From NCBI GenBank assembly GCA_963924875.1, contig CAWUSX010000022.1, forward strand, positions 124,129 through 188,128: 64,000 nucleotides of DNA, given 5' to 3'. The position numbers and the translations under genes are program-made. Of the stretch, positions 5,108 through 55,315 are shown in pieces (the first letter of the stretch is position 1; each line of letters starts with the position of its first letter). Under the pieces are notes generated by a model, which saw nothing but the letters and a program-made list of their open reading frames with translations, was not told where the DNA came from and made no database searches. Source of the DNA: an uncultured Gammaproteobacteria bacterium (GTDB lineage: Bacteria; Pseudomonadota; Gammaproteobacteria; SZUA-229).

Positions 5108-5149
5108 AAAGCTCAGTGAGGATTTAAATGTGAACAGGGAACCGTTAGC

Positions 5150-5914: not shown

Positions 5915-5936
5915 TGGCCAGATTCAATAATAGAAA

Positions 5937-6461: not shown

Positions 6462-6471
6462 GTGCTGATCT

Positions 6472-6969
6472 ATGGAAATTCTTATTTATCCAGATCAGCG
6501 GCTTAAGCAAATCTCGGAACCCGTAGAAAACATAGATAAAGAGTTGCTCGACTTTATTTATCAGCTAGAGCAGACACGACAATCTGGCCCTGGTGCTGTG
6601 GGCATTGCTTCGCCACAAGTTAATATGTTTAAGCGTGTGGTGATTGTTGATGTGTCGAACATGAGAAAGCCCGTGGACAATCATGGGCATATGATTATGG
6701 TGAATCCCGAAATTACAGAATGGGACGGTATGTCGATGGGGCGTGAAGGCTGCTTATCGGTACCGGAATTTACCGGCAACGTTATTCGTGCAGAAAAAAT
6801 AAAATTAAATTATACGGATGAGGCAGGGCTTCAGCATGAAATTGAATCTAGTGGTTTTGAAGCCAGGGCGATTCAGCATGAAATGGATCACCTGGATGGC
6901 CTGCTGTTTCTAGATCGTCTGGTGAGCAGGCGCAGTGATTTATTTAAACGCAAAGTGTATAAAAAATAG
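6472..6969 (+). CDS. def: peptide deformylase
   Basis: Motifs GVGIASPQ, EGCLSVP and QHEMDHL. Confidence 0.8.
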   Translation: MEILIYPDQRLKQISEPVENIDKELLDFIYQLEQTRQSGPGAVGIASPQVNMFKRVVIVDVSNMRKPVDNHGHMIMVNPEITEWDGMSMGREGCLSVPEFTGNVIRAEKIKLNYTDEAGLQHEIESSGFEARAIQHEMDHLDGLLFLDRLVSRRSDLFKRKVYKK

Positions 6970-7047
6970 CTGTAATTCTATTGATCGGCGACATGTTACT
7001 TAATACTCATCTATTATTATAAGATCTGTACAGGGAGTTAGCACGCA

Positions 7048-9474: not shown

Positions 9475-9538
9475 ACGCTTGAGTAGTTTGTTTTAAATCA
9501 AATGTTAGTTATTAATGACTAGTCAAATTTTCATACCC

Positions 9539-9566
9539 CTTGAATTTAGCTTGAAAACCCACATCT
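9539..9566 (+). promoter_or_regulatory. candidate sigma-32 heat-shock promoter upstream of clpB
   Basis: CCCCTTGAA, then a 14-nt spacer, then CCACATCT (consensus CTTGAAA-N13-15-CCCCATNT), about 35 nt before the clpB ATG. Confidence 0.45.
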
Positions 9567-9600
9567 CCTAGTCAATAGAAACACTTAATGAGGCTATGCC

Positions 9601-12201
9601 ATGAGAATGGATAGATTAACCAGCAAGTTTCAAACCGCACTTTCTGAGGCGCAATCGCTTGCTGTTGGACGAGATCACCAATTTATAGAGCCAGTTCACC
9701 TAATGCTGGCCCTGCTTGATCAGGATGGTGGCTCAGTGCGTCACTTACTGACTATGAGTAATGTGAACGTTAATGGCTTGCGTTCAAAGCTTGGCGAAGA
9801 ATTAGAGCATTTACCGCAGGTTGAGGGCAATGCAGGTGATGTTCATTTATCAAATGACCTGTCACGCTTACTTAATGTCACAGACAAGCTTGCTCAAAAA
9901 CGTAAAGATGATTATATCTCCAGTGAGTTGTTTGTGCTGGCCTGCATAGAGGAAGGTTCACGTATTGGTGCTATTTTACGTGAATTTGACGCAGATAAAA
10001 AATCCCTGGAAGAAGCTATCGATAAAGTACGTGGTGGGCAAAAAGTAAATGACCCGAATGCAGAAGACCAGCGTCAGGCATTAGAAAAATATACCGTTGA
10101 TGTAACTGAGCGTGCTGAGCAAGGCAAGCTTGACCCTGTGATTGGACGTGATGAAGAAATCCGTCGTACCATTCAGGTATTACAGCGACGTACTAAAAAT
10201 AATCCAGTGTTAATTGGTGAGCCCGGTGTCGGTAAAACTGCAATTGTTGAAGGTCTGGCGCAGCGTATTGTTAATGGTGAAGTGCCTGAAGGTATAAAAA
10301 ACAAACGCTTATTATCATTGGATTTAGCCGCATTGATTGCGGGTGCAAAATTTCGGGGTGAATTTGAAGAGCGTTTAAAAGCGGTGCTGAACGACCTATC
10401 TAAACAAGAAGGTCAGGTCATTTTATTCATAGATGAAATTCATACTATGGTGGGTGCTGGAAAAGGCGAAGGCGCCATGGATGCGGGTAATATGTTAAAG
10501 CCTGCATTGGCACGTGGCGAATTACATTGCGTGGGTGCAACCACACTGGATGAATATCGAAAGTATATCGAGAAAGATGCAGCTCTGGAGCGACGCTTCC
10601 AAAAAGTTATTGTAGATGAGCCAAGTGTTGAAGATACCATTGCGATATTACGTGGATTAAAAGGTCGTTATGAAGTTCATCATGGTGTAGATATTACTGA
10701 CCCTGCAATTGTTGCGGCGGCGGTTCTTTCGCACCGTTATGTGACTGATCGCCAACTGCCCGATAAGGCAATTGATTTAATTGATGAAGCGGCTAGCCGT
10801 ATTCGTATGGAAATCGATTCTAAACCGGAAGTAATGGATCGTTTAGAAAGACGTTTAATTCAATTAAAAATTGAACGCGAAGCACTAACTAAAGAAAGTG
10901 ATAAAGCATCAATAGAGCGCTTAGCAAAATTGCAAATAGCGATTGATGAATTAGAAATAGAGTATCAGGAACTGGAAGAGGTTTGGGTTTCTGAGAAAGC
11001 CGCATTGCATGGTAGCGCAAGCATTAAAGAAAAACTTGAGCAGTCAAGGCTCGAGCTGGAAACGGCGCGACGTGCGAATGATCTGGCACGTATGTCTGAG
11101 TTGCAATATGGGCGCATTCCAGAGTTAGAAAAACAACTGGATATGGCGTCGCAGGTAGAAATGCAGGAAATGACCTTGTTGCGTAACCGAGTCACTGAAG
11201 AAGAAATTGCTGAGGTGGTATCACGTGCTACCGGTATTCCTGTGGCTAAAATGATGGAAGGCGAAAAAGAAAAGCTACTGCATATGGAAGACGCAATCCG
11301 TAAACAGGTGGTTGGCCAGGAAGAGGCTGTTGCATCTGTATCGAATGCAATACGCCGTTCACGTGCGGGCCTGTCTGATCCCAACAGGCCTAATGGATCG
11401 TTCCTGTTTTTAGGCCCAACTGGTGTCGGTAAAACAGAATTAACCAAGGCCCTGGCCAAATTTTTATTCGATACAGAAGATTCCATGATTCGTATTGATA
11501 TGTCAGAATTTATGGAAAAACATTCGGTGGCACGGCTCATTGGAGCGCCTCCAGGCTATGTTGGTTATGAGGAAGGTGGCTATTTAACCGAAGCGGTAAG
11601 ACGTAAACCTTACTCTATCATCTTGCTGGATGAAGTTGAGAAGGCGCATCCCGATGTATTTAATGTACTGTTGCAGGTATTAGATGATGGTCGTCTTACG
11701 GATGGTCAGGGGCGTACCGTAGATTTTAGAAATACTGTGATTGTGATGACATCTAACCTGGGTTCACAAAAAATACAGGAATTTTCTGGAAAGGATGACT
11801 ATGCAGGAATGAAGGCGGCGGTTATGGAAATTGTTGGCCAGCATTTCAGACCGGAATTTATTAATCGTATTGATGAATCGGTTGTATTCCAGCCATTAGG
11901 GCGTGAGCAAATTCGTGCAATCACTGCCATTCAGATTGAGTATCTACGTCAACGATTACAAGACAAAGATATGGATTTACATTTGAGTGAAGAGGCGTTG
12001 GATAAGTTAGGGGAAGCTGGTTTTGATCCGGTGTACGGCGCAAGACCACTGAAACGAGCCATTCAACAGAGCCTTGAAAATACCTTGGCACAGCAGTTAC
12101 TACAGGGTGACTTCATGCCAGGTGATGTGATTGAAGTGACTTTGGACGGTGATGAATATAAATTTAGTCGTGGCGTTAAATCGGATGAGGTAGCGGCTTA
12201 A
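9601..12201 (+). CDS. clpB: ATP-dependent chaperone ClpB
   Basis: 866 aa with two AAA+ modules (GEPGVGKT and GPTGVGKT) and a coiled-coil middle domain. Confidence 0.95.
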
Positions 12202-12275: not shown

Positions 12276-12560
12276 TTACTCATACCTTTCGTTTTTATTG
12301 AAGTTAACTTTAATATACTCAACCGCAATATCGACAGCTTTATGAGCATCTTCGATCATCTCGGCACGCACAGATTCTTCTAGATAGAACACCATGTCTA
12401 TTTCGTGTCGCATGTAACGAGCGGGTAGTCTGGACAGGGCGTAACAGGCCACATCCAGAAAAAAGTCAGTGGACTTGTCTGGCATATCAGGAATGATTGT
12501 TGTGTGTATATAATCCGTTACCAGATGTTCGTAATAGTTGTGTATGCCGGAAAAATCCAT
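12276..12560 (-). CDS. ComFB-family protein (late competence development protein ComFB-like)
   Basis: 94 aa. ...ALSRLPARYMRHEIDMVFYLEE... parallels the ComFB motif ALNQLPPKYV..ERGEV, but the Cys cluster is absent. Last gene of the purM-purN-DUF3108-yjgA minus-strand string. Confidence 0.5.
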   Translation of the reverse strand: MDFSGIHNYYEHLVTDYIHTTIIPDMPDKSTDFFLDVACYALSRLPARYMRHEIDMVFYLEESVRAEMIEDAHKAVDIAVEYIKVNFNKNERYE

Positions 12561-12590
12561 AAAAAGTATCCATCAATAAAACTATGATAA

Positions 12591-13121
12591 TTATAGACCG
12601 TTTTCGTCGATGTTATATGATTGGTCGACAATCTCGCGTATATATTTAAAGATAGCGCGGAAGGATGCGGCGGGTTTATTGCGCTTTTTTTCCTGAGCCA
12701 CATTGCGTACGAGTTGTCGTAGGTACTGCCTGTCAGCATGAGGATACTCTTCAAGAAAGGCCGTGATGCCATTATCCCCATCATCAATTAGGGTATCACG
12801 CCACTTTTCCATGCGTTTAAATGCCGCACTAAAAATATCATGTTTGTGCAATACGAGATTCAGTTGAGCCGTAAGAGGTTCGATGTCTCTGCCGCGCATA
12901 AGCTTGGCGATATAGTGTTTCTGACGCTTTAATGCACCGTGTGATTTTATTCTCTGGCCTTCTTCAAATGCATGGCGTAACTCATCATCCATATTAAACT
13001 GCGCGAGCTCATCTTTGGTTAGGGCAAGTATTTTTTCACCTAGTTCAAGCGTGTCATCGCAATCTTTTTTGCGTGACGTCCGGCTAATGTAATTGCCGTC
13101 ATCATCATATAAATCAGTCAT
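12591..13121 (-). CDS. yjgA: ribosome-associated protein YjgA/DarP (DUF615)
   Basis: 176 aa charged protein with a typical UPF0307 sequence (KRQKHYIAKLMR...). Confidence 0.75.
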   Translation of the reverse strand: MTDLYDDDGNYISRTSRKKDCDDTLELGEKILALTKDELAQFNMDDELRHAFEEGQRIKSHGALKRQKHYIAKLMRGRDIEPLTAQLNLVLHKHDIFSAAFKRMEKWRDTLIDDGDNGITAFLEEYPHADRQYLRQLVRNVAQEKKRNKPAASFRAIFKYIREIVDQSYNIDENGL

Positions 13122-13132
13122 ATTGAAATCTT

Positions 13133-13906
13133 TTATTTAAGTCGCTTATATTGTTTAAGCGTCATGCTAACGTTTAGTTCATCGTCTTTGTACTGCTCTA
13201 TCCTTAGAGGTAAATAATCGAAGCTCTTTGCAAGCCATACATAGGTGAATCGGTTGCTACCCTGGCTGGTTATTTTAAATTTCAGGCACGGCTGTGTTTT
13301 ACCGTCAAAATCTATGGAGTCATGGCTTACAATAGTGAAGGCGTAATTTTCCAGCTCGTTTTTATCGATAGTTAGAAGGCTGTCGCCTGTGGTTTTATCA
13401 TTTTTTAGTAAATAACTGCTCATTAAAATAGGCAGTAATTGACGTGACCAGACATTTTTTTCGGCCGTTAATGTAACAGATTTATTTTTGTATGAGCTGG
13501 ATATGTCAACGTGATTCATAGTGGGCCAGTTGAAAGAAATTTTCTGGTCCTTTTTTGTCTTTTTTGTATGCTGCAGGGTGTAGCTGGTTTGTTGCGGCGA
13601 TTTTATTGTGTCGTCGCCAGGCCAGTATAACTGGCTGGTTTCTGCAATGGTTTCTTTATAAAGAAGTGCGGCAAAACCCGTTGCTATTGCTTCGGAGGTG
13701 AAGTTGATCTGCTGATCATGGTATTGAAAATTATTTGTTATTTCCCCAACCACAGTTCCATATTTTGTAACGTCGTAGATAGTTTGGTGATTTTCAGGCA
13801 GAGGAAAATCACTAGCCGCAAAGCTATTGCTGGTAACTAACAATAGCAGGCCGATGCTTAAAATACGCAAAGGTTGAGTTATGTAATAAGTTGCTTGTTG
13901 ATCCAT
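13133..13906 (-). CDS. DUF3108-domain secreted protein
   Basis: Signal peptide. Position immediately downstream of purN (28-nt overlap), as for DUF3108 genes in Pseudomonas-type pur loci. Domain assignment from memory. Confidence 0.55.
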   Translation of the reverse strand: MDQQATYYITQPLRILSIGLLLLVTSNSFAASDFPLPENHQTIYDVTKYGTVVGEITNNFQYHDQQINFTSEAIATGFAALLYKETIAETSQLYWPGDDTIKSPQQTSYTLQHTKKTKKDQKISFNWPTMNHVDISSSYKNKSVTLTAEKNVWSRQLLPILMSSYLLKNDKTTGDSLLTIDKNELENYAFTIVSHDSIDFDGKTQPCLKFKITSQGSNRFTYVWLAKSFDYLPLRIEQYKDDELNVSMTLKQYKRLK

Positions 13907-14544
13907 TTTGCCGGGCTTGTCAGTCTTTGTTTGTTTAGGTAAACCTGCTGGTCAATTATTTCTAGTTGGTGCTGTGCTATCCATTCAATAACCATAGGAT
14001 AGATTACATGCTCCAGACTATGAATGCGTTGTTGCAGTGACTCAATTGTGTCACCGGTCTGTACATCCATCACTGCCTGTAAGACTACAGGGCCACCATC
14101 GAGTTCATTGCTTACATAATGAACGCTTACACCATGTTGACTAACTTTGGCCTCTAATGCGCGTTGATGGGTGTTAAGACCTTTAAATTCGGGTAGTAAT
14201 GAAGGATGAATATTTAGCATTCGGCCATCGTAATGAGCCACAAATTCATCCGTGAGTATGCGCATAAAACCCGCTAATATAATGAGCTGCGGCTGGTATT
14301 GATCAATCGTGTGCATGAGTTGCTGATCAAACTCTGCACGGTTTTCAAATTTGGTATGGTCAAATGTGTGAGTAGCAATGCCCGCCAATTTGGCTCGTTC
14401 AAGCCCTTTAACATTAGGACGGTTGCTTATAACTGCACTGATTTTGGCGTGTAACTTACCTGCATTAATAGCATCTATTATTGCCTGTAAGTTGCTGCCG
14501 CTGCCGGAAATTAATACGACAATATTTAATGGAGGTGTATGCAT
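13879..14544 (-). CDS. purN: phosphoribosylglycinamide formyltransferase
   Basis: IVVLISGSGSNLQAI and the formyltransferase core. Confidence 0.9.
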   Translation of the reverse strand: MHTPPLNIVVLISGSGSNLQAIIDAINAGKLHAKISAVISNRPNVKGLERAKLAGIATHTFDHTKFENRAEFDQQLMHTIDQYQPQLIILAGFMRILTDEFVAHYDGRMLNIHPSLLPEFKGLNTHQRALEAKVSQHGVSVHYVSNELDGGPVVLQAVMDVQTGDTIESLQQRIHSLEHVIYPMVIEWIAQHQLEIIDQQVYLNKQRLTSPAKWINKQLIT

Positions 14545-16829: not shown

Positions 16830-17894
16830 ATGGCGTCTTTGAGTGATTCACAAAAATGGATGTTTTTACTTGGAACATTAACGCTGCTATTTGCCCTGTA
16901 TTTATTGGCGCCGGTACTTACGCCTTTTTTTGCGGCTGCTTTGTTAGCCTATCTGGGCGATCCGCTTGCCGATAAACTAGAGCAAAAATTGCCCCGTAGT
17001 TTGGCTGTAAGCATTGTGTTTGTTGTATTGTTTTCCAGCTTAACGATTGTAGCGCTATTAATTTTTCCATTATTGGCTCAGCAACTAAGCTATTTGTTCT
17101 CAAACATGCCTGCGTATATTGATAATATTCAGCAAAATTTTGTACCTATGGTGGCGCAAAAACTGGGTATTAATATTAGTCATATCAATTTCGATTTTAT
17201 TAAAAAACTATTCACTACACATTATGCAGAGGCCGGCGGTATAGTGACCCAGATCGTGTCCTCGATTGCTGCGTCAGGCATGGTTGTTGTTGCATTATTT
17301 GCCAATTTACTACTCATCCCGGTCGTTACATTTTATTTATTGCGAGATTGGGATAAATTAATTGCGCGTATTGATGAGCTGCTTCCACGGAAATATCAGC
17401 CCGTGATTATGAAGTTGGCAAAACAATCTGACGATGTTCTGGCGGCATTCATACGCGGTCAATTTTTAGTTATGTTAGTGCTCGGTGTAGTGTATTCCAG
17501 TGGTTTATGGTTTATTGATATAGAACTGGCGTTGTTAATTGGTATGTTGGCAGGTCTTGTGAGCTTTGTTCCTTACTTAGGATTTATTGTTGGCATACTT
17601 GTGGCGAGTATCGCCGTTTTATTGCAAACGCAGGATGCAATGATGCTGATCCCCGTGTTTATTGTATTTGGGGTTGGGCAGGCATTAGAGGGGATGGTGC
17701 TTACACCATTGTTGGTCGGTGATAAAATTGGTTTGCATCCCGTTGCTGTGATTTTTGCGGTATTAGCAGGTGGTCAGTTGTTTGGTTTTGTTGGTGTGCT
17801 ACTGGCATTGCCAGTAGCTGCTGTATTGGCTGTACTGCTCAGGCACCTGCACAGTGAATATAAATCCAGCGCAATTTTTAATAATACTCCTTAG
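16830..17894 (+). CDS. AI-2E family transporter (PerM-like permease)
   Basis: 354 aa with about 8 TM helices and a typical AI-2E topology and sequence. Confidence 0.8.
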   Translation: MASLSDSQKWMFLLGTLTLLFALYLLAPVLTPFFAAALLAYLGDPLADKLEQKLPRSLAVSIVFVVLFSSLTIVALLIFPLLAQQLSYLFSNMPAYIDNIQQNFVPMVAQKLGINISHINFDFIKKLFTTHYAEAGGIVTQIVSSIAASGMVVVALFANLLLIPVVTFYLLRDWDKLIARIDELLPRKYQPVIMKLAKQSDDVLAAFIRGQFLVMLVLGVVYSSGLWFIDIELALLIGMLAGLVSFVPYLGFIVGILVASIAVLLQTQDAMMLIPVFIVFGVGQALEGMVLTPLLVGDKIGLHPVAVIFAVLAGGQLFGFVGVLLALPVAAVLAVLLRHLHSEYKSSAIFNNTP

Positions 17895-20558: not shown

Positions 20559-21507
<949 letters not shown>

Positions 21508-21630
21508 ATGCATACCTTAAAAGTAAATTACTATTGAAGGGGCGAAAGAATAGCTTATTTATAGGGCTATTGGCAAAGAGGAAGTTATTCACACATGTTA
21601 AAAGAAACATCGTCTATTTGCCAGATTAGC

Positions 21631-21659
21631 TTGACACTTAGGCATCTCATTGCTAATTT
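21631..21659 (+). promoter_or_regulatory. candidate sigma-70 promoter for the LysM lipoprotein gene
   Basis: TTGACA, then 17 nt, then TAATTT, about 50 nt upstream of the ATG at 21710. Confidence 0.35.
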
Positions 21660-21709
21660 CTTCTTAATAGAAGATATTAACGAACATTAATGCATCGGGG
21701 ACGATCAAC

Positions 21710-22360
21710 ATGAAATTTACTCAACTTATCAAGCCGCTATTTATCGTAATGCTTGCACTCGGCTTGGTTGCTGGTTGTGCAACTGATGGCGGTACAAGTG
21801 ATTCATCAGGTTATACAGCAGAACAGGCAATTGCGAATGCAAAATCAGCAAATGCTCAAGCCAAGAAAATGGGCGCTGAATGGCGTGACACAGGCAAGAT
21901 AATTAAGAGCGCAGAAGATGCACTGGCTGCCGGTGATGAAGAAAAAGCGAAGACATTAGCTGGTAAAGCACAGCGTCAAGCTGAAATTGCAATGGAACAA
22001 GCGAAGAGTGAAAATGCACGCTTACTTGCAAGTGGTGCTATTACGGGTTCTTCAGACATGTCTGGTGAAGCTGGTGTGATGGCTGGTGATGATTCGTATC
22101 AGGTAGTGACGGGTGATAACCTGTGGAATATTTCTGGTAAAGAAGCGGTTTACGCAAACCCATATCAATGGCCGCTTATCTATAAAACAAACCGTGACAA
22201 AATCAAAGATGCTGACCTGATTTATGCAGGCCAGGTATTTGAAATTGACCGCAACGCATCTAGCTCTGATGTTGATGCAGCTGTTGAACATGCAAAAACA
22301 CGTGGTGCATGGTCGGTTGGTGCAGTTGAAGCATCAGATGAAGCATATCTGGCTCAATAA
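21710..22360 (+). CDS. LysM-domain lipoprotein
   Basis: Lipobox LVAGC. C-terminal LysM domain (YQVVTGDNLWNISGK...DLIYAGQVFEI). Confidence 0.75.
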   Translation: MKFTQLIKPLFIVMLALGLVAGCATDGGTSDSSGYTAEQAIANAKSANAQAKKMGAEWRDTGKIIKSAEDALAAGDEEKAKTLAGKAQRQAEIAMEQAKSENARLLASGAITGSSDMSGEAGVMAGDDSYQVVTGDNLWNISGKEAVYANPYQWPLIYKTNRDKIKDADLIYAGQVFEIDRNASSSDVDAAVEHAKTRGAWSVGAVEASDEAYLAQ

Positions 22361-22386
22361 CCGAGGTCTAAATTTAGACTGTGAAA

Positions 22387-22417
22387 TAGGGCTCGCATTA
22401 GCGAGCCCTATTTTTTT
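22387..22417 (+). terminator. rho-independent terminator
   Basis: Perfect 10-bp stem TAGGGCTCGC/GCGAGCCCTA with loop ATTA and a T7 run. Confidence 0.8.
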
Positions 22418-22576
22418 GCGCGTAATATATGCTATTAATAGGAGCTAACTGGGTTTTTGACAATCAACAGGTAGTGAGCTTTCTTTAAGGTGGAAATGTC
22501 TGACGAAATATTTCGTAAGTGCGTGATCAAGGTTATACTGCCAGTATGCTCAATGTAGAAGAGGACGCCGAGTAAG

Positions 22577-23101
22577 ATGCCTAAACGATTGAATACATCC
22601 CTGTTTGTACTATTACTGTTATTTATTCATCTTTCAGCGAATGCTGCTGAGTTGGAATTTTTTGATCAGAGCTTTGGTGATTTTTCCGAAGAATTGTCAT
22701 TAGCAAAAGAAGAAGGTAAGTCGGGTATTTTTATCTTTTTCGAAATGGATGAATGCCCATTTTGTCATCGTATGAAAACAACCATTTTGAATCAACCGGA
22801 TGTCGTAGCCTTTTATAAAAAACACTTCAAAATATTTCAGGTAGATATTGAAGGGGATGTTGAAATGACAGATTTTGATGGCACGGTCACCACGCAGAAA
22901 GAATTCGCAGAAAAAAAACACCGAGTGAGAGCGACACCAGTATTGGCATTTTTTGATTTAACTGGTAAACGAGTAATGCGTTATACCGGCGCGACATCGT
23001 CAAAAACCGAGTTTATGCTATTAGGTGAATATGTGTTGAATCAAGATTATAAAACTACCAGTTTCACTCGTTATAAAAGGCAGCAGCGTAAGACACAATG
23101 A
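22577..23101 (+). CDS. periplasmic thioredoxin-fold protein (CPFC active-site motif)
   Basis: Signal peptide ...HLSANA/AE and ECPFCHRM (CxxC). First gene of the four-gene cassette. Overlaps the next gene by 4 nt. Confidence 0.6.
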   Translation: MPKRLNTSLFVLLLLFIHLSANAAELEFFDQSFGDFSEELSLAKEEGKSGIFIFFEMDECPFCHRMKTTILNQPDVVAFYKKHFKIFQVDIEGDVEMTDFDGTVTTQKEFAEKKHRVRATPVLAFFDLTGKRVMRYTGATSSKTEFMLLGEYVLNQDYKTTSFTRYKRQQRKTQ

Positions 23102-24381
23102 TGCGTTTAATTATTGTCTTTCTTGGCTCGCAACTATCTGTTGCAGCTGCTGATTCTACACAGGTATTATCCGACCCATTAAGCTTGCAGCAAGTTATGC
23201 AAATGGCGGAGCAGCCTGATTATTTCACACTTATTGATGCACAATCGAAAATAGCACAATCTCAGTCGGCGTTAGAACTAGCAGAATCATCATTAGGCTT
23301 TAGCGCACAACTTGAATTGCAGGCGGCATATGTAGAGCCCCCTAGTATTGCATATGATCAATCGAACAATGATAGCACAGCAACTTTATACCTGATTAAA
23401 CCACTCTATGATTTTGGTGGCAGCGGTAAAAAAGTACAGGCAGCTAGTATTGAGCAACAGGCATGGCAAGCTAATATGTCATATGTTGTAGCGAATAGAA
23501 AAATAGAAATAGCCAAATATTTTTTTGAAGTCATCTTGTCTGATTTAAAATATGCATGGGATAACGAATCATTGGCGATTGCATATGTTCAACATGATAC
23601 GGTGAAAGATAGGCATGCGCTTTTGCAAATCTCAGATTTAGAGTTATTAGAATCAGAAAACCGATATATGGATGCTCTACACGCGCGCAGTTTAAGTGAA
23701 ATAGAGCAGCGTCATAGTCGCGCAACTTTAGCGGAAGTTTTAAATAGACCTACTCAGTTGCCTTCGAATTTAGTGCTGCCTGAATTCGATTTTTTACAAA
23801 CAGAGCTCCCAGACTACGCATTACTAATGGATAAAGTTCTTTTGTCGAACCCACAAATTTATCTCGCTGAACAACAATATGCAGCAGCCGAACAAAGGCT
23901 GGAGGCAGAAAATAAGCAGATGAGCCCTTTATTAAGTGCGGAACTCACAATATCTGAATACGCGCGAACTACATCCAGTGATGATATGCGTGCGTCTTTA
24001 AATTTAACAATGCCTTTGTATGAAAGTAGCAGCATAAAATCGCGTATATCCGGGGCACGTGCTAATTTATTGAGTCAGCGTGCCAAGCTATTAAGTACAA
24101 AGTCACAAATAAGAAAGCAGACACTAAATTTGTGGCAGACGGTGGTATTGCTGCAGACGCGGCAGCAGCAGTTGCAATCTAAGCAGGATTTGCGAGAGCT
24201 TGAATTGGATAAGAGTCGGGCACTCTATGAAATGGAAGTAAAAACCGATTTGGGAAATTCAATGGTTGCGATTTCTGAAATACGTTACTTACGCGCAAAA
24301 AATGAATATGAACTGGCACTGGCCTGGATGCAGTTACGCCTGCTTGCGGGCGAGAAAGATATCATAAATGCTACTTTATAA
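23098..24381 (+). CDS. TolC-family outer membrane factor
   Basis: 427 aa with a signal peptide but no lipobox. Two-repeat OEP-like coiled-coil/beta pattern. Confidence 0.75.
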   Translation: MMRLIIVFLGSQLSVAAADSTQVLSDPLSLQQVMQMAEQPDYFTLIDAQSKIAQSQSALELAESSLGFSAQLELQAAYVEPPSIAYDQSNNDSTATLYLIKPLYDFGGSGKKVQAASIEQQAWQANMSYVVANRKIEIAKYFFEVILSDLKYAWDNESLAIAYVQHDTVKDRHALLQISDLELLESENRYMDALHARSLSEIEQRHSRATLAEVLNRPTQLPSNLVLPEFDFLQTELPDYALLMDKVLLSNPQIYLAEQQYAAAEQRLEAENKQMSPLLSAELTISEYARTTSSDDMRASLNLTMPLYESSSIKSRISGARANLLSQRAKLLSTKSQIRKQTLNLWQTVVLLQTRQQQLQSKQDLRELELDKSRALYEMEVKTDLGNSMVAISEIRYLRAKNEYELALAWMQLRLLAGEKDIINATL

Positions 24382-24395
24382 ATGGTTTATTAATA

Positions 24396-25154
24396 ATGGA
24401 ACTGGCGATGAAACAAAATAGTAATTTACTTTTGTTATTAATATTTTTTAGCTCACTATCAATGGCGGAGGATATTAAAGCGAATCTATCCTGGGCTGAT
24501 ATACAAAAAATTGGTTTTCCGGTGACAGGTGTCGTTGAATCAGTTGCGGCCAAAGTGGGCTCGAAAGTAAACAAGGGTGACGTGTTAGCGAAGCTAGATA
24601 CTGCACCATTTAGTTATCGTGTTCAGTCTTGCAAGGCAGCAATAGAAAAATTACAGCCGCTTGTTTTTGATGCAAAAACAGAGCTCGACCAGGCGAAAGA
24701 ACTATTTGAGCGCACTGTATTATCAGAGGTCGAATTATCTAAAATCGATGGTGTTTATAAGTCACTTAAAGCCGAAGAATCAATGTTAAATGCGGAATGC
24801 AAGTTAAAGCAGTGGCAGGCTGATAGAGCGGTATTGAAAACGCAAAATTCTAGCTATGTACAGGCATCTAATATTTACCCGGGTATGGTTATTTCGGCTG
24901 AAAATAAATCGACTGCTATTATACAGTTGGTATCAGCTACCAGGGCATCAGCAGTGTCATATGTTAGCGCCAGTCAGTTACAGCAATATAAAGTTGGTGA
25001 CCAGTTAAAAGTGATCATTGACGGGCAGGAAATAACGGCAGAGGTGCAATCGATTTCTCTACAGGAAAACACCACTAGCCAGTATCGACTTGAGGCGGTT
25101 TTTTATTATGCACAGATGGTTGAGCCAGGTAAGGCTGTAAGCTTAAGATTTTAG
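24396..25154 (+). CDS. short periplasmic adaptor (HlyD/RND membrane-fusion-protein family, lacks membrane-proximal domain)
   Basis: 252 aa with a signal or anchor sequence. Lipoyl-like hairpin KVGSKVNKGDVLAKLDT...(coiled coil)...beta-barrel segment. Confidence 0.65.
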   Translation: MELAMKQNSNLLLLLIFFSSLSMAEDIKANLSWADIQKIGFPVTGVVESVAAKVGSKVNKGDVLAKLDTAPFSYRVQSCKAAIEKLQPLVFDAKTELDQAKELFERTVLSEVELSKIDGVYKSLKAEESMLNAECKLKQWQADRAVLKTQNSSYVQASNIYPGMVISAENKSTAIIQLVSATRASAVSYVSASQLQQYKVGDQLKVIIDGQEITAEVQSISLQENTTSQYRLEAVFYYAQMVEPGKAVSLRF

Positions 25155-25195
25155 TGCGCGATTAATACAATTAAATTCCAATTGGCAGACATACA

Positions 25196-26977
25196 ATGAA
25201 TGCAGTCATGAAGCAAAACGATAAAGTATTAGATATACAATCCGTCATTAACTGGCTTGAAGAAGATGCCATGGTGACTGCTGAAAATGCAAAAATGTTA
25301 CGCACTCTGGCTGTGTCACCGCAGTATCATGAAAAAAATGCACTGATAGTAATCGCCGAACGCCAATGGATAGATCAGCGTGACGGACGAAGTGTACTTG
25401 ATCTGGAGTCACTTACAGTTTGGCTTGCAGATAGAGCTAAACTGCCTTATTGCAGGATTGATCCATTAAAAATTGATGTTTCGAAAGTTACATCGGTGAT
25501 GTCTTATGCGTATGCATCGCGATTTAATATTTTACCCATATCCATTGACGACCAGTTTATTACAGTGGCAACTGCAGAACCTTTTGTCAAAGAATGGGAG
25601 CAGGAACTCTCACGTATTAATCAAAAGTCTTTCAAGCGTGTTGTTGCTAATCCGGATGAGATTTCTCGTTATCTGTTAGAGTTTTACACGGTTTCTAAAT
25701 CCGTTAATCGAGCGGAATCTGAGTCACAAAAAAATGCGGCAGAGATAGGTAACCTTGAAGGTTTAATGGAATTGGGCCGTGCAGGTAAACTTGATGCCAA
25801 TGATCAGCACGTTATTAATATTGTGGATTGGTTATTACAATATGCCTTTGAACAACGTGCCAGTGATATCCATTTAGAACCGCGCCGAGATTTAGGTAAT
25901 GTGCGATTTCGTATTGATGGTGTAATGCATCAGGTGTATCAAGTGCCAAGCACAGTCATGGCGGCGATATCAAGCCGCATTAAAATATTGGGCCGAATGG
26001 ATGTTGCGGAAAAACGCCGCCCACAAGATGGCCGTTTAAAAACACGTACACCAGACGGTACAGAAATAGAGCTACGTTTGTCTACCATGCCAACCGCATT
26101 TGGTGAAAAATTGGTAATGCGTATTTTTGATCCGGAAGTGCTGGTTAAAAACTTTAAAGAGCTGGGTTTTAGTCAGTCGGATGATGAACACTGGCAATCG
26201 ATGATCAGCCGGCCCAATGGTATTATTCTGGTTACTGGGCCAACCGGTTCAGGTAAAACCACAACGCTGTATACCAGTTTAAAACAGTTGGCAAAACCAG
26301 AAGTAAATGTGTGTACGGTTGAAGACCCGATTGAATTAGTGGAACCTGCATTTAATCAAATGCAGGTACAGCATAATATTGGCTTAGATTTTTCCGCGGG
26401 TGTTAAAACCTTATTAAGACAAGATCCAGACATAATAATGATTGGTGAAATCCGCGATAAAGAAACGGCAGATATTGCAATTCAAGCGGCACTAACCGGA
26501 CACCTGGTGGTGACAACATTACATACAAATGATGCGCCTTCGGCAATTACACGCCTAATGGAAATTGGTGTGCCTGCGTATTTAATACAATCTACCGTGT
26601 TGGGTGTGTTGGCTCAGCGTTTAATAAGAACCCTGTGCCCGCATTGTAAAGTGGCAACTGAGGTAGATGAGGCAACGTGGAAGGCGTTGGTTAAACCCTG
26701 GAGTGCCACCAAGCCAAAACAAATATTCAAACCTGTTGGTTGCCTGGAGTGTCGTAATACGGGCTTTATGGGGCGTATGGGTATTTACGAAATGTTTACA
26801 TTTAGTAACCCGGTGAAAGAGCAGATAACCGAAAATATGAATATGTCAGCGTTGAAAAAAGTCGCGTTAAAAGAAGGTATGAAACCTTTGCGTTTAAGTG
26901 GTGCGCAAAAAGTGGCTGCTGGTTTAACTACAATAGAAGAAGTATTGCGTGTTGCGCCACCCGTTGATGGGTTTTAG
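25196..26977 (+). CDS. GspE/PilB-family secretion ATPase (cytoplasmic)
   Basis: Walker A GPTGSGKTT, Asp box, Walker B DPDIIMIGEIRD, His box TLHTNDA and the tetracysteine CPHC...CLEC. N-terminal GSPII_E_N-like domain (...ASRFNILPISIDDQFITVATAEPF). No TM segments. Confidence 0.85.
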   Translation: MNAVMKQNDKVLDIQSVINWLEEDAMVTAENAKMLRTLAVSPQYHEKNALIVIAERQWIDQRDGRSVLDLESLTVWLADRAKLPYCRIDPLKIDVSKVTSVMSYAYASRFNILPISIDDQFITVATAEPFVKEWEQELSRINQKSFKRVVANPDEISRYLLEFYTVSKSVNRAESESQKNAAEIGNLEGLMELGRAGKLDANDQHVINIVDWLLQYAFEQRASDIHLEPRRDLGNVRFRIDGVMHQVYQVPSTVMAAISSRIKILGRMDVAEKRRPQDGRLKTRTPDGTEIELRLSTMPTAFGEKLVMRIFDPEVLVKNFKELGFSQSDDEHWQSMISRPNGIILVTGPTGSGKTTTLYTSLKQLAKPEVNVCTVEDPIELVEPAFNQMQVQHNIGLDFSAGVKTLLRQDPDIIMIGEIRDKETADIAIQAALTGHLVVTTLHTNDAPSAITRLMEIGVPAYLIQSTVLGVLAQRLIRTLCPHCKVATEVDEATWKALVKPWSATKPKQIFKPVGCLECRNTGFMGRMGIYEMFTFSNPVKEQITENMNMSALKKVALKEGMKPLRLSGAQKVAAGLTTIEEVLRVAPPVDGF

Positions 26978-27316
26978 AAATATTAAGTTGCATGGTTTTT
27001 TATAGCTCAAGTTGATGGTGGCTAATAATTTAAGAGGGCCTGAGCTTACGATAATCGATATATGGGTTTGAGGATATTCAGTGAGCTGATTGGAGTGATG
27101 TCAAAGTTAATCTTTTCGAGTAGGTATCGCACTATAAATATTCCCATGTTGATAGCAATACCGAAGCCAGTCGAAAGCGCATAGTTAATAATTCCGCGTC
27201 ATTATAAGGGTTTAGAGACCCTGTATTTTTCAGAGTTTATTTTCAATCAAATCATTTATACTTCCCCTGGTTACAGCTGCCCTCATAATGCAGGACAAAA
27301 TATTTTGGAATTTTAA

Positions 27317-28264
27317 ATGCATAGTCACACCTTAGAAAATTGGCAACATAGTCATGAATTCGCAGTTAAAAATAATAAGGGTGAACGTCGAACCCTCTAC
27401 GTTTTAATTCTGACGGCTATAACAATGATTGTGGAGATATTTGCAGGTAGTATCTACGGATCAATGGCCTTGCTTGCAGATGGCTGGCATATGGGAACGC
27501 ATGTCGCGGCCTTTATGATTACGATCTTTGCCTATCGTTATGCCCGTAACCATGCAAATAATCCGGCCTACTCTTTTGGTACCGGTAAAGTAAGTGTGCT
27601 GGGTGGTTTCGCTAGTGCTATAGCTTTAGCTGTAGTGGCTTTAGTTATGCTGGTTGAGTCAATGCAGCGAATTATAGACCCGCAAATTATTCAGTTTAAT
27701 GAAGCCATTGCCGTTGCTAGTCTCGGTTTGCTTATTAATATTATTAGCGCATTCCTTTTAAAAGATGACCACCATCATCACCATGAACATGAGCACAGCG
27801 ATAATCATCATCATGACCATAACTTACGCGCGGCTTATATGCATGTGCTGGCTGATGCGCTGACATCGCTGCTAGCTATCGTTGCATTAATATCAGGAAA
27901 ATATTTTGGCTGGAATTGGCTCGACCCAATAATGGGGATAGTTGGTGCAATTATTATTACCCGTTGGTCATATGGTCTACTCAAGCAAACAAGCCCAATT
28001 TTGCTAGATGGAAGTATTGGGGAAGGCTACCAATCAGCGATTAAAGAGACCATTGAAAAAGATTCTGATAATCGTATTTCTGACATTCATATATGGAAAG
28101 TAGGTGCAAATCATTATGCAGCGATAATTTCCATAGTGACGCACTACCCTAAATCGACCACTTACTACAAAGACTTGCTCAAGGAATTTCATAAACTATC
28201 TCACACTACTATTGAAGTGAATGCGTGTGAGGGCGATCCTTGTGTTGCACAAGGTGAGCACTAA
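27317..28264 (+). CDS. czcD: cation diffusion facilitator (CzcD/ZitB-type Zn/Co/Cd efflux)
   Basis: 6 TM helices and a His-rich loop HHHHHEHEHSDNHHHDHN. Preceded by a 339-bp non-coding leader. Confidence 0.85.
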   Translation: MHSHTLENWQHSHEFAVKNNKGERRTLYVLILTAITMIVEIFAGSIYGSMALLADGWHMGTHVAAFMITIFAYRYARNHANNPAYSFGTGKVSVLGGFASAIALAVVALVMLVESMQRIIDPQIIQFNEAIAVASLGLLINIISAFLLKDDHHHHHEHEHSDNHHHDHNLRAAYMHVLADALTSLLAIVALISGKYFGWNWLDPIMGIVGAIIITRWSYGLLKQTSPILLDGSIGEGYQSAIKETIEKDSDNRISDIHIWKVGANHYAAIISIVTHYPKSTTYYKDLLKEFHKLSHTTIEVNACEGDPCVAQGEH

Positions 28265-28328
28265 CACTTAAAAACAGGTGTTGCCAATATTGAATGCTGG
28301 CTATCAGACTGGAACCGGTAATTTTGCA

Positions 28329-29201
28329 TTAAGCTCGGTGCTTTTCAAGCTCAATCATCAACATCTTCGCTGCATTTGATAGTGTGCGCTGTTGGTGGCT
28401 TACTACGCCTAGTAGTCGTTCAAATTCCACACCCTCTATATCCATACGTGCAATATCACTTGATAGCATAGAGACCGGTAGCACACTCCAGCCGAGACCA
28501 ATGGATACCATCATTTTTATGGTCTCCAGATAATTGGTTTCCATTGCGATATTTAAATTCTGTTCATTTAGGCCTAATGCCTTTTCCAGTAGTAATCGGG
28601 TAAAGGTATTTTTAGCCGGCAAAATAGCCGGCAGTTTACGCAGCTTGTTCACGCTGAGTTTTGCTGTGTGAACATTGGGGTGTTGTGAGCTAATGACGAT
28701 GTCGAGTGGGTCATGCCAGATGGTTTGATGTTGCAGGTGTTTCCATTCATGATCAGGCAGGGTAGCAATGGCCAGTTCGACTTCACCTTTTAATACCGAT
28801 TGACAGGCCTCTTCTGAATCCATAAAGCGGATATCTATATCCACAGCAGGGTAATCTGTAGTGAAGGCGCGTAGTACTGGAGGTAATCGATGTAATCCAA
28901 TGTGGTGACTGGTGGCTATTTTCAGGTGCCCGCTTACTTTCTCATTTAAGTTACCAATGGCGCGCTTGCTATCATCTAGTTCAGCTAAAATACGTTGTGC
29001 ACTGGGTAATAGTGCGTGGCCCGCTTCGGTGAGCAGGACTTTTTTACCAATGCGATCAAACAGATGTGTGTTGAGCTCGGATTCTAGTGAAGAGATGCGT
29101 TTACTAACGGCGGGTTGTGTAATAAACAAGCGCTCGGCGGCTCTGGAAAATGAACCAGTATCACTAACTGCGATAAAGGCAGATAAATTTTGAATATCCA
29201 C
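28329..29201 (-). CDS. LysR-family transcriptional regulator, divergent from leuC
   Basis: N-terminal HTH FSRAAERLFITQPAVSKRI and a LysR substrate-binding domain. Confidence 0.85.
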   Translation of the reverse strand: MDIQNLSAFIAVSDTGSFSRAAERLFITQPAVSKRISSLESELNTHLFDRIGKKVLLTEAGHALLPSAQRILAELDDSKRAIGNLNEKVSGHLKIATSHHIGLHRLPPVLRAFTTDYPAVDIDIRFMDSEEACQSVLKGEVELAIATLPDHEWKHLQHQTIWHDPLDIVISSQHPNVHTAKLSVNKLRKLPAILPAKNTFTRLLLEKALGLNEQNLNIAMETNYLETIKMMVSIGLGWSVLPVSMLSSDIARMDIEGVEFERLLGVVSHQQRTLSNAAKMLMIELEKHRA

Positions 29202-33936: not shown

Positions 33937-36900
33937 GTGAGGGGACTACTTGTGCGCAAATTAACACTGAGCCTTGCCGTGATGGCTGCCTTATTGCCAG
34001 CACGCGGCTATCCATTAGGGTTGGGTGAGATAGAGCTGAATTCGGCGCTAAATCAGGAACTTAATGCAGAAATAGAAGTACTATCAGCGTCGTCTGACGA
34101 TGCGAATCAAATGATAGTTCAGTTGGCGAACCGAGACGCATTTATTCGCGCAGGTATGGATCGCCCTTATCTTCTACAACAGCTGCAATTTAAAATTGTT
34201 GAAAAAGAAGGCCGACCTTTTGTAAAGGTGTTTACCAAGTCGGTTATTCGCGAGCCATTTTTAAGCTTTCTAGTAGAAATAGATTGGCCGCAGGGCCATT
34301 TGTTGCGTGAATATACGCTTCTATTAGATCCACCTGTTTATAATTCTTCTACGGGTGCGGCTTCTGCTTCATCGGAGGAGGCTCATCCTTTTATTGATCC
34401 GGCTGATGTTAGAGCGCAGGCACAGCCGGGAGCTTCACTGCAGCAAGGTGGGCGGTCAACAGGTACCCATACCTATTCAACGGCGCAATCAGGCTCGATT
34501 AGTTCAGGTTCTGGCCGCAGTATGACGTACAGTGCACCACGATCTGCTGCTGCAGCACCTACTTCAATAGTTACCTCTCCTGTTACAAATCAATATCGCG
34601 TAAAGCAAGACGACACTTTATGGAGCATGGCCAATCGCATGCGGCCTGATAATTCGGTAAGTGTTGAGCAGATGATGCTGGCATTGGTGCGTAAAAACCC
34701 AGAAGCCTTTATTAAAGAAAATATTAATGGTGTGAAACGCGGCTACATTTTGCGCATGCCAGATCGTAATGAGCTCAGCCAATTGGATCGCCAACAGGCA
34801 GTTGCACAGGCTAAAAAACACGCCGCTTTATGGCGTGAATATAGTCAGAATTCGATGGGTCAGGCGCCGGCCTCCTCAATGGAGGGGCAGGCACCATCTG
34901 CTGGTACTTCAGCCGTTGAAGAAGATACTGCTGGTCATTTATCTATTGTTGGTGCGAGCAAGGCTGACGGTAGTGAACATGCGGGTGCAAATCAGCACCC
35001 AGATTCAGAGCTTGGCCGTCTTAAGCAAGAGCTTGCAATGGCAAGAGAACAACTTGAATCTGAGCGTGTTGAAAAAGAAGGCTTACGCACGCGGTTGTCT
35101 GATTTAGAGCAAAAAGTTCAAAGCGTTATCCAGATGGATGATGGTGAATTGGCCAAGCTGCAACAAGAGCTACAACAGCAATCCCAAACGTCTGAACAGC
35201 CTGTAGCTGAAGAGATTATTGAAGAAGTGGTTGTTGAGCCAGCTGAAGAGGGTGTTGTAGTAGAAGAGACGGTAACCGAAGAGGTTGCTGTCGAGGCAGC
35301 TGCGGAAGATGCAGAAGCGGTAGTTCAGGAAGATGCAGCAGATGCGGTGTTTGTCGATGAATTAGAGGTAAGCGCAGATAGCGAGATGACTGAGGCGCCA
35401 GATGTTGCCGACGAGACTCCGTCTATTGAGCCGCCTGCTTTTGCACAGCCCAAGCCTAAAGGTTTCTTTGATAGTTTGATGAATGATCCAAAATCACTCG
35501 GTATGATTGGCGGTGGTTTGGCATTTGTTCTGTTGTTAATTGTCTTGCTCTTAAAGCGTTTAAGGGGTGGAAAAGAAGAATCACAAGATGATTTTGCAAC
35601 AGAAAATGGATTTTCAGATGCGGCAGATTCAACCATGCAATTCGATGCGATGGATACATCCGCTGCAGATGATTTGAGCATGGTTGATACTCAAATTGAT
35701 GTGCCCGCAATGGACGAAGATACGCTCCTTAACCTGAATGATGATGAGCCTGCTGCGGTAGATGATCAGCAAGACGATGTTTTAGCAGAAGCAGATGTTT
35801 ACATTGCTTATGGCATTTATCAACAGGCAGAAGACTTGCTGAAAAATGCTATCGATAAAGATCCAGAGCGTGATGACTATCGAATGAAGTTAATGGAAAC
35901 ATACTTCGCGGCTAAAGATGCGACAGCATTTGAACAAACAGCAGCCCAGGCTCAGGCACGTAAAGGTAACGATGAGTCATATTGGGGACGTGTTGCTGCG
36001 ATGGGCTCTGAATTATGCCCTGGTAGTGAGATGTTTTTTGATACGGGTGAGGTTATTAGTGGTTTTGACGCCGATGTATTAGTGCCTGAAAAGCCTGAAA
36101 CCACAGATCTGGAGCTGGATGTTGATGAGGCTAATCTGGGTTTAGATTTAGGCGCAACAGCAGAAGTTGATGCACTAACAGATGACTTAGAGCTAGATGG
36201 TGTGCCTGATCCAGGTGAAGGAATGTCTTTTGAGTCATCTGAGACAGATGAATTTGATCTTGCGGGTGATCTTGCTGATATCGCGAACCAAACCGAAGAG
36301 CCACCTGCTGATGATGAAGTAGCCGAATCTCTTGAGTTTGAATTAGGTGAGCTTACTCAGGAAATACCCGTAAATAAGGCCGAGGATGAGGTGGTATCAG
36401 CTGAGGACGAGATGGATGATCTTGATATCGATGAAGACTTCTCGCTTGACTTTGCCGCCTCAGATTTAGGCTTCGAGGAGCCAGAAGAAGAGTCGACTTT
36501 AGAAACTGTTGTTGATGAAACCGACGACCTTGATTTGAGTGCAGATTTAGATTTAGGTTCGAATATTGATGAGCCCGCAACGACTGATACTGAAGAATCA
36601 TTAGTTGATGATGAGTCGATGGAAATGGATTTCACTGACGACTTAGGCGATAGTTTGAGCGACGATTTAGGTGAAATCCATCTTGATGATTCAGAACTGG
36701 ATCTAGGTGATGATCTGAGCCTGGATGAATCAACGGATGCTGCAGAGTTAGAAACTAATGCGCATAGCGTGTCTGTTTCTGATGATGAGGAATTTGATAT
36801 TTCAGAGTTGTCCGAAGATCTTGATGAAGTTAGTACTAAATTAGATTTGGCAAAGGCTTACATTGATATGGGCGATCACGAAGGTGCGCGCAGCATACTG

Positions 36901-36972
36901 GAAGAAGTTAAGGCTGAAGGTAATGACGAGCAGCAGAAAGAAGCTGAATCGTTGCTACAGCAAGCTGGCTAG
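33937..36972 (+). CDS. fimV: FimV-family peptidoglycan-binding protein (LysM, central TM helix, acidic repeats, C-terminal TPR)
   Basis: N-terminus LGLGEIELNSALNQELNAEIEVL and LysM domain YRVKQDDTLWSMANRM. TM helix LGMIGGGLAFVLLLIVLLL, a long D/E-rich repeat region and the C-terminal FimV motif LDLAKAYIDMGDHEGARSILEEV. asd-fimV-truA synteny. Confidence 0.8.
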   Translation: MRGLLVRKLTLSLAVMAALLPARGYPLGLGEIELNSALNQELNAEIEVLSASSDDANQMIVQLANRDAFIRAGMDRPYLLQQLQFKIVEKEGRPFVKVFTKSVIREPFLSFLVEIDWPQGHLLREYTLLLDPPVYNSSTGAASASSEEAHPFIDPADVRAQAQPGASLQQGGRSTGTHTYSTAQSGSISSGSGRSMTYSAPRSAAAAPTSIVTSPVTNQYRVKQDDTLWSMANRMRPDNSVSVEQMMLALVRKNPEAFIKENINGVKRGYILRMPDRNELSQLDRQQAVAQAKKHAALWREYSQNSMGQAPASSMEGQAPSAGTSAVEEDTAGHLSIVGASKADGSEHAGANQHPDSELGRLKQELAMAREQLESERVEKEGLRTRLSDLEQKVQSVIQMDDGELAKLQQELQQQSQTSEQPVAEEIIEEVVVEPAEEGVVVEETVTEEVAVEAAAEDAEAVVQEDAADAVFVDELEVSADSEMTEAPDVADETPSIEPPAFAQPKPKGFFDSLMNDPKSLGMIGGGLAFVLLLIVLLLKRLRGGKEESQDDFATENGFSDAADSTMQFDAMDTSAADDLSMVDTQIDVPAMDEDTLLNLNDDEPAAVDDQQDDVLAEADVYIAYGIYQQAEDLLKNAIDKDPERDDYRMKLMETYFAAKDATAFEQTAAQAQARKGNDESYWGRVAAMGSELCPGSEMFFDTGEVISGFDADVLVPEKPETTDLELDVDEANLGLDLGATAEVDALTDDLELDGVPDPGEGMSFESSETDEFDLAGDLADIANQTEEPPADDEVAESLEFELGELTQEIPVNKAEDEVVSAEDEMDDLDIDEDFSLDFAASDLGFEEPEEESTLETVVDETDDLDLSADLDLGSNIDEPATTDTEESLVDDESMEMDFTDDLGDSLSDDLGEIHLDDSELDLGDDLSLDESTDAAELETNAHSVSVSDDEEFDISELSEDLDEVSTKLDLAKAYIDMGDHEGARSILEEVKAEGNDEQQKEAESLLQQAG

Positions 36973-55305: not shown

Positions 55306-55315
55306 AAGACCAAAT

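Follow-up and report, generated by a model that had tools for sequence, protein, structure and literature searches.

Introduction

Acinetobacter baylyi has a second extension motor for its type IV pili, the phylogenetically distinct TfpB, which was defined in this species and whose gene is described as an orphan and was named for its non-synteny with pilC (PMC8213720). The homologues listed in that source come from Acinetobacter, Psychrobacter, Pseudomonas, Azotobacter, Xanthomonas and others, and TfpB is also covered in a review (PMC11656802). Here I describe a four-gene cassette in which a tfpB gene follows a trio of genes for a thioredoxin-like protein, an outer-membrane factor (OMF) and a periplasmic adaptor, the latter two related to components of tripartite pumps such as AcrA-TolC. 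The cassette lies in a 64,000-nt stretch of DNA from an uncultured gammaproteobacterium of the GTDB lineage SZUA-229 (assembly GCA_963924875.1, contig CAWUSX010000022.1, positions 124,129 to 188,128 of the forward strand), which as a whole is called the window and in which all coordinates are given unless a locus is named. An earlier reading of these letters, hereafter the original prediction, had suggested that ATPase, OMF and adaptor form a single envelope-spanning system. Comparison with other species makes it likely that tfpB and the trio are instead two independent modules, which stand side by side on an old, conserved arsC-to-proS backbone and do not form one machine.

The open reading frames (ORFs) of the cassette are as follows.

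22577-23101, + strand: first gene of the trio, thioredoxin-like (ORF, 174 aa)
23098-24381, + strand: second gene of the trio, OMF (ORF, 427 aa)
24396-25154, + strand: third gene of the trio, adaptor (ORF, 252 aa)
25196-26977, + strand: tfpB, PilB-like ATPase (ORF, 593 aa)

These four ORFs, their coordinates and their spacing (the first two overlap by 4 nt, and the intergenic gaps that follow measure 14 nt and 41 nt) agree with the original prediction, as do the 339 nt of non-coding DNA between the ATPase stop and the next ORF at 27317. Public gene calls place the start of the adaptor 12 nt further downstream, which gives a protein of 248 aa. The domains that had been assigned to the four products were recovered in Pfam and NCBIfam profile searches.

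Assignment of the ATPase to TfpB

The ATPase matched the NCBIfam equivalog model for TfpB (NF053534) with 922.8 bits against a cutoff of 850, residues 8-588 aligning with model positions 3-583, while the models for PilB (528.4 bits, cutoff 675.65) and GspE (519.8 bits, cutoff 630.25) both stayed below their cutoffs. Its Pfam domains are MshEN at residues 82-165 (48 bits, cutoff 23.1) and T2SSE at residues 202-585 (436 bits). The Walker A motif GPTGSGKTT and the cysteines C481, C484, C516 and C519 show no variation among 16 homologues, and the best solved homologues in a profile search were structures of PilB (5zfr, 3jc8 and 5tsg, ~1e-111). The nearest relatives in the databases, at 72-94% identity, belong to uncultured gammaproteobacteria and include a tubeworm endosymbiont and hydrothermal-vent samples. 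Judged by its sequence, the ATPase is TfpB, a PilB-like motor for type IV pilus extension that is encoded by an orphan gene, and as such a member of a known family.

The original prediction had pointed to an extra leader and a divergent domain at the N-terminus of the ATPase as oddities. Both are present, but they are features of the TfpB family, since the TfpB model covers residues 8-588. Similarly, the claim that the cassette matches no known architecture holds for the three genes of the trio and fails for the ATPase. TfpB would act as a cytoplasmic, hexameric PilB-like ATPase that helps to start or to drive the extension of type IV pili and, by analogy with A. baylyi, would do so on a PilC/PilM platform encoded elsewhere in the genome. 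Literature on the TfpB homologue of P. aeruginosa, searched under the locus tag PA5210 (deduced from IMG gene numbers), held nothing apparently relevant.

Gene neighbourhoods of tfpB in other species

A TfpB alignment was searched against one genome per GTDB species, which returned 80 loci at 58-71% identity, and the gene content of loci was determined by searching six-frame ORFs with iteratively built hidden Markov models (HMMs), one for each cassette protein. Among the 64 loci with at least 3 kb of sequence upstream of tfpB, genes for OMF and adaptor were found upstream in three (L005, L017 and L037) and were unlinked to tfpB in the remaining 61. This is the arrangement that the original prediction had itself named as one that would reduce the cassette to an ordinary locus. 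The sensitivity of the HMMs was adequate, as ordinary long adaptors were picked up elsewhere in the TfpB loci. The loci span gamma- and betaproteobacteria, with labels of metagenome-assembled genomes (MAGs) that include Thiodiazotropha, Granulosicoccus, Zooshikella, Endozoicomonas, Methylomonas, Accumulibacter, Dechloromonas and Gallionella, and all six distant TfpB homologues sampled across both classes exceeded the TfpB cutoff (871-958 bits).

The neighbours of tfpB were heterogeneous: across the 87 loci compared, any given gene cluster was found within 4 kb of tfpB in 20 loci at most, and the neighbour clusters examined within this distance included no component of a type II secretion system (T2SS) or of type IV pili (T4P). 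The commonest neighbours were a DUF4398 lipoprotein gene, arsC, an acylphosphatase gene immediately 5' of tfpB (14 loci) and proS.

A large gene for a PAS-GGDEF-EAL protein of cyclic di-GMP turnover adjoins tfpB in nine of the 80 loci from other species, starting a median of 14 nt downstream (L015, L019, L025, L047, L048, L058 at 4119-7061, L064, L071 and L072). Together with the MshEN-type N-terminal domain, this adjacency hints that TfpB may be under the control of cyclic di-GMP (c-di-GMP). The canonical RLGxx c-di-GMP motif was not apparent in residues 1-80 of the ATPase on inspection by eye, no motif search having been made.

The trio as a unit separable from tfpB

An alignment of the adaptor was then used as the seed for a search of metagenomes, in which 80 loci were found at 25-79% identity. 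The adaptor evolves fast, and a word-seeded search recovered only 30 homologues, all of ~250 aa. The OMF gene preceded the adaptor gene in all 68 loci with enough upstream sequence, and the thioredoxin gene was present upstream in all 52 loci that were informative for it. A gene for an acylphosphatase of ~90 aa (AcyP, confirmed by Pfam) followed the adaptor gene in 40 of 64 loci and often overlapped its stop codon. In contrast to this constancy of the three genes, tfpB followed the trio in 32 of 50 informative loci and was absent from the other 18, whose adaptors are the most divergent. On contigs of sufficient length, these 18 tfpB-less loci mostly continued with genes for an SLT transglycosylase (nine loci) and proS (seven loci), on the other strand. 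No pump gene was found within ~5 kb downstream of these 18 trios, where only SLT, proS and other housekeeping genes were present. A pump or platform was also sought upstream of all informative trio loci, and only genes for DUF4398 lipoproteins, a TlpA-like redoxin and BrkB/YihY were found there.

Three layouts were thus seen on one arsC-to-proS backbone, namely DUF4398-trio-AcyP-tfpB, DUF4398-trio-AcyP and DUF4398-AcyP-tfpB. The trio with AcyP and without tfpB was found in L132-L134, L141, L153 and the P0149 contig, followed by SLT and proS where the contig extends, and an independent contig without the ATPase carries the order DUF4398-redoxin-thioredoxin-OEP-adaptor-AcyP. The reverse case, DUF4398-AcyP-tfpB without the trio, was found in L004 and L007-L012. 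These differ from a close relative, L005, which has the trio, at 68-71% ATPase identity. The thioredoxin-OMF-adaptor trio is an invariant unit, and it is separable from tfpB in both directions.

Products of the trio

The adaptor scored 83 bits with the RND-type adaptor model TIGR01730, below the cutoff of 94.9. Its AlphaFold2 model (pLDDT 91.2) consists of a signal-peptide helix, a lipoyl domain, an alpha-hairpin of two ~35-residue helices (residues 70-105 and 111-143) and a beta-barrel, and ends at residue 251; a membrane-proximal domain is absent from the model, and neither a lipid nor a transmembrane anchor was found. Foldseek returned AcrA in AcrABZ-TolC as the best match (TMq 0.74), with MexA and MacA also matched, and superposition on 2f1m, a crystal structure of AcrA that comprises only 223-247 residues, gave a TMt of 0.82. 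Profile matches to TriAB (6vej, 5e-32) and MexJ (7e-25) end where the membrane-proximal domains of these proteins begin. The N-terminus has a short hydrophobic stretch and a conserved A-x-A-type cleavage site followed by an acidic residue, and contains no cysteine. The adaptor is therefore predicted to be secreted and soluble, since its signal peptide is cleavable and no cysteine is available.

A profile search of 1.84 billion representatives (E<=1e-30, clusters at 50% identity) showed that the adaptor family has at least 517 clusters, and the best 150 were nearly all 241-276 aa long. As a length of ~250 aa is conserved, the short adaptor represents a large family and not a truncation, and the absence of the membrane-proximal domain, which the original prediction had noted, is borne out by both the model and the family.

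The OMF matched Pfam OEP in two stretches (77.3 bits), and has a signal peptide and no lipobox cysteine. Its score with the TolC subfamily model was 57.9 bits, far below the cutoff of 225, while the family profile aligned end to end with TolC residues 3-406; the best match was SilC (5e-9). By these alignments the OMF is a divergent, full-length relative of TolC and not a lipoprotein. The first product of the trio matched Thioredoxin_2 (69.7 bits) and Thioredoxin_7 (36.6 bits), and has an N-terminal signal peptide and a CPFC motif in the context FFEMDECPFCHRMK. Of the 62 aligned homologues in which the motif is covered, 61 have CPFC and one has CPWC, and the nearest solved structure is the DsbC-like 4fyb (1e-6). 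This protein is far better conserved than its partners, with 3293 matches, of which the top 120 are all at least 61% identical. Its fold, signal peptide and motif identify it as a putative periplasmic thiol:disulfide oxidoreductase of the thioredoxin fold. No curated NCBIfam model passed its cutoff for any of the three trio proteins.

These results bear directly on the proposal of a single, new envelope-spanning machine, encoded by all four genes, whose GspE-type ATPase would power export through a duct of adaptor and OMF. The packing of the genes on one strand, the lack of an internal terminator in a consensus scan and the retention of the gene order in a sizeable clade all speak for such a machine. 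However, the adaptor is a soluble, periplasmic protein and does not have the cytoplasmic tail through which contact with the ATPase had been envisaged; having no cytoplasmic or transmembrane segment, it cannot touch a cytoplasmic ATPase directly. The ATPase satisfies the curated TfpB model, no inner-membrane platform was found nearby, and each module occurs on its own at the frequencies given above. I therefore regard a single machine as very improbable.

A different account would be that the locus is a decayed or rearranged czcCBA- or type I secretion system (T1SS)-type pump without its former inner-membrane transporter, and that the CDF gene 339 nt downstream of tfpB is a relic of a metal-resistance island. 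The gene in question, called czcD in the original prediction, encodes a CDF transporter of the DmeF type, and the adaptor does match the CzcB-type barrel-sandwich model weakly. With the CzcB model TIGR00999, however, the adaptor reached 37.7 bits against a cutoff of 319.3, and its closest solved relatives are TriAB, MexJ and AcrA. None of the three trio ORFs is truncated when compared with its homologues. In the related loci that were scanned, a DmeF gene directly followed tfpB only in L001, a second contig of the same organism, and in L051 and L052 it lay ~5-6 kb from tfpB on the opposite strand. The DmeF gene belongs to neither module, and its adjacency is peculiar to this lineage. Given that the short adaptor is family-wide and that none of the 18 tfpB-less loci has a pump within ~5 kb downstream, descent from a czc or T1SS locus was rejected, and its probability appears negligible.

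Other genes recur near the trio. A TlpA-like AhpC/TSA-redoxin gene lies 5' of the thioredoxin gene in L132, L133, L141, L144, L146, L153, L154, L158, L164 and L167, and a gene for a BrkB/YihY-family inner-membrane protein is found near the trio in L131, L137, L144, L146, L152, L154, L158, L159 and L165; both precede the thioredoxin gene in distant, mostly tfpB-less trio loci. This upstream neighbourhood strengthens the periplasmic thiol-redox theme of the trio. No other membrane protein recurs near the trio, so that BrkB/YihY might be considered as a candidate partner, which was not adopted here because it occurs in nine loci only and is absent from the window. In L154, the OMF gene (6662-7995) and tfpB (9036-10811) are each split into two ORFs, perhaps by decay of the block or by sequencing error. 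L153 carries a different PilB/GspE-like ATPase gene (12325-14109, - strand) ~3.5 kb downstream of its tfpB-less trio and beyond proS, which scored 434 bits with the TfpB model, far below cutoff, and ~514 bits with the PilB model.

The conserved backbone

The gene order of the clade is purN, purM, DUF2066, AI-2E transporter, hda, DUF2069, wrbA, arsC, DUF4398, trio, AcyP, tfpB, Crp-like regulator, SLT and proS. From purN to tfpB this order, with AcyP variable, is kept over ~18 kb in L002, L084, L168 and L170, and through SLT-proS in L084, L168 and L170. The window carries the same upstream genes, among them a homologue of the AI-2E-family transporter at 16830-17894 that was assigned by synteny only. 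As the whole ~18-kb block is conserved, the adjacency of tfpB and the trio is no better conserved than that of unrelated housekeeping genes. In P. aeruginosa, genes for thioredoxin and acylphosphatase are presumably also located between arsC and proS, without OMF, adaptor or tfpB, an arrangement in keeping with a common backbone.

The immediate flanks of the cassette contain the following features.

21710-22360, + strand: DUF4398/LysM lipoprotein gene, conserved upstream neighbour of the trio (Pfam DUF4398 29.5 bits; weak LysM match)
22383-22421, + strand: intrinsic terminator at the end of the DUF4398 gene, setting it apart from the cassette (14-bp stem, then seven U)
27317-28264, + strand: DmeF-type CDF Co/Ni efflux gene (NF033827 416.5 bits, cutoff 250)

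The DUF4398 gene is located directly 5' of the trio, or of AcyP-tfpB, in many related loci; it is a backbone neighbour, and a functional tie to the trio is not implied. The terminator had been placed at 22387-22417 and was confirmed; its stem spans 22383-22414, and seven U come after it (-23.8 kcal/mol, z = -5.7, none of 200 shuffles being as stable). AcyP is absent from the window, where a 41-nt gap (25155-25195) takes its place, and from the closest relatives L089-L091, and is present in L092-L097; the lineage of the window has lost it cleanly. Downstream of tfpB the window is rearranged, with DmeF, a LysR regulator and leuCDB replacing SLT-proS.

Relatives with the full block have a gene for a ~340-aa cyclic-nucleotide-binding protein directly 3' of tfpB (L168:13773-14795, L170:13616-14641 and L171:6740-7765), and a Crp-family regulator a few genes beyond it. 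The window is without both because the region 3' of tfpB has been rearranged.

The four genes of the window are probably co-transcribed, because the gaps are short and no internal terminator was seen. A consensus terminator scan found none between the adaptor gene and the ATPase gene, but the same scan missed the clear terminator at 22383-22421; it also reported fewer promoter-like sites than in shuffled sequences and was not relied on. Co-transcription reflects shared regulation or inherited gene order and not a shared machine. Neither does tight packing of the genes imply a complex, since the gene for the cytoplasmic AcyP overlaps the stop codon of the periplasmic adaptor in many loci.

Several observations weigh against the reading of two independent modules. 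One clade, with adaptor identities from 100% down to ~31%, retains the order trio-(AcyP)-tfpB, in which the genes are very closely spaced, and the gap between adaptor gene and tfpB is a mere 1-6 nt in L017 and L037. The block of five genes is also intact in L086, L122 and L123, where hisD takes the place of DUF4398 upstream, and some selective or regulatory link between trio and tfpB may follow from this. The function of TfpB has so far been demonstrated in one species only, and any function of the trio is entirely putative. Trio and tfpB may accordingly be distinct machines that are functionally connected in this clade as one co-regulated operon, in which, for example, the trio exports or redox-processes something for the pilus base or for surfaces. 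The 1-6-nt gaps, the persistence of the five-gene block in another upstream context and the lack of a scanned terminator between adaptor gene and tfpB in the window are in line with such a connection. On the other hand, the entire 18-kb neighbourhood is equally conserved, housekeeping genes included, and L005 and its trio-less relatives show that each module can stand alone among close relatives. A co-regulated but separate arrangement is kept as a minor rival on account of the L086, L122 and L123 block and the 1-6-nt gaps, and is considered unlikely.

Proposed function of the trio

With tfpB and the trio regarded as independent, the adaptor would most likely assemble into a hexameric sleeve and dock on the trimeric channel tip to tip, in the manner of AcrA and TolC, a proposal that follows from the fold. 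Because both a membrane-proximal domain and an anchor are missing from the adaptor, the resulting duct would need periplasmic substrates or a remote partner: it may accept periplasmic substrates directly, or borrow a transporter that is encoded elsewhere. The obligatory thioredoxin partner suggests that either the substrate or the machinery undergoes a thiol/disulfide step. Tentatively, and with less confidence than in the separation of the modules, the trio might be a widespread, undescribed outer-membrane export duct that has no dedicated inner-membrane pump, in which the thiol state of the substrate is set by the CPFC oxidoreductase, and which is co-transcribed with tfpB in one clade.

A TolC-type duct driven by a GspE-type ATPase would, if true, be a new class of secretion system, and the comparative evidence instead points to an accident of gene order. 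TfpB, known experimentally from one Acinetobacter species, is found here across gamma- and betaproteobacteria, including MAGs that bear the labels of sulfur-oxidising symbionts, Accumulibacter and Gallionella. This breadth, together with the variable neighbours and the occasional c-di-GMP gene, is useful for understanding how a single pilus machine can be shared by two extension motors. The trio is well defined, widespread and apparently unstudied, and combines a channel and an adaptor without the domain and the partner gene that usually link such ducts to an energy source, which makes it a reasonable target for studying how periplasmic substrates reach TolC-like channels.

Other features of the window

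No gene of an ABC, RND, MFS, GspF/PilC-type or prepilin peptidase protein was found among the annotated genes of the window, not every ORF having been scanned, and the absence of a nearby inner-membrane pump noted in the original prediction held to this extent. The only pilus-suggestive gene seen in the window encodes a FimV/HubP-family polar landmark protein (33937-36972, 1011 aa, FimV core and C-terminal domains), which follows apparent leuC, leuD, leuB and asd genes (called from gene order) and precedes a confirmed truA.

The GC content across the cassette region was unremarkable, and an Rfam scan of 21500-28400, including the 339-nt spacer, gave nothing above chance. Within the spacer 5' of the DmeF gene (26978-27316), one weak hairpin followed by a T-run is located at 27207-27222. 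Two GGDEF-EAL proteins are encoded in the window (7048-9474 and 50591-52681), one with a PAS domain and the other with a response-regulator receiver domain. A flagellar run at 53014-59787 contains FliM (55316-56323) and FliP (57198-57941), is flanked on the opposite strand by a gene (53014-54408) for a protein whose sole domain is of the FliK hook-length type, and is directly followed by cysG (58345-59787), where more flagellar export genes might be expected.

Comparison with known systems

The window ATPase shares with TfpB of A. baylyi (ACIAD2241) a full-length equivalog match and a PilB-like architecture of MshEN and T2SSE, and neither gene adjoins pilC or pilD, as far as the annotated genes of the window are concerned. 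It differs in that tfpB of the window, and of one clade, sits 3' of the thioredoxin-OMF-adaptor trio, and its function here is a predicted one. T2SS and T4P gene clusters encode the ATPase together with GspF/PilC, a secretin and (pseudo)pilins, none of which was seen among the annotated window genes.

The thioredoxin-like protein shares with the DsbC C-domain, DsbH, TlpA and ResA oxidoreductases the Thioredoxin_2/Thioredoxin_7 fold, a signal peptide and a near-invariant CxxC motif. Its resemblance to DsbC- and DsbH-type proteins is only distant (34 bits with the DsbH model, cutoff 190), and unlike the genes of the DsbC, DsbH and TlpA types it is invariably coupled to OMF and adaptor genes.

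A literature search for the trio found no relevant description. With AcrA-TolC, MexJ and TriAB-OpmH it has in common the adaptor fold, as seen in the AcrA superposition, the profile matches and an OMF that aligns with TolC, whereas its adaptor lacks the membrane-proximal domain and lipid anchor of the AcrA, MexJ and TriAB adaptors. In contrast to RND, ABC and MFS tripartite pumps and to T1SS, there is no transporter gene within the downstream range examined in the tfpB-less loci or among the annotated genes of the window, and in contrast to AcrA-TolC-type pairs the trio includes an obligatory gene for a partner of the thioredoxin fold. The EmrA adaptor (4tko) is likewise without a membrane-proximal domain and was among both the sequence and the fold matches to the trio adaptor. 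Its superposition was poor (root-mean-square deviation 16-28 A, TMq 0.45-0.49), and EmrA has an N-terminal inner-membrane helix and is encoded beside EmrB, whereas the signal peptide of the trio adaptor is cleavable and no gene for a partner transporter was found over that same range. As a variation on the tripartite-pump theme, the trio is missing two of the features that define this theme, the connection of the adaptor to a transporter and a transporter encoded alongside it.

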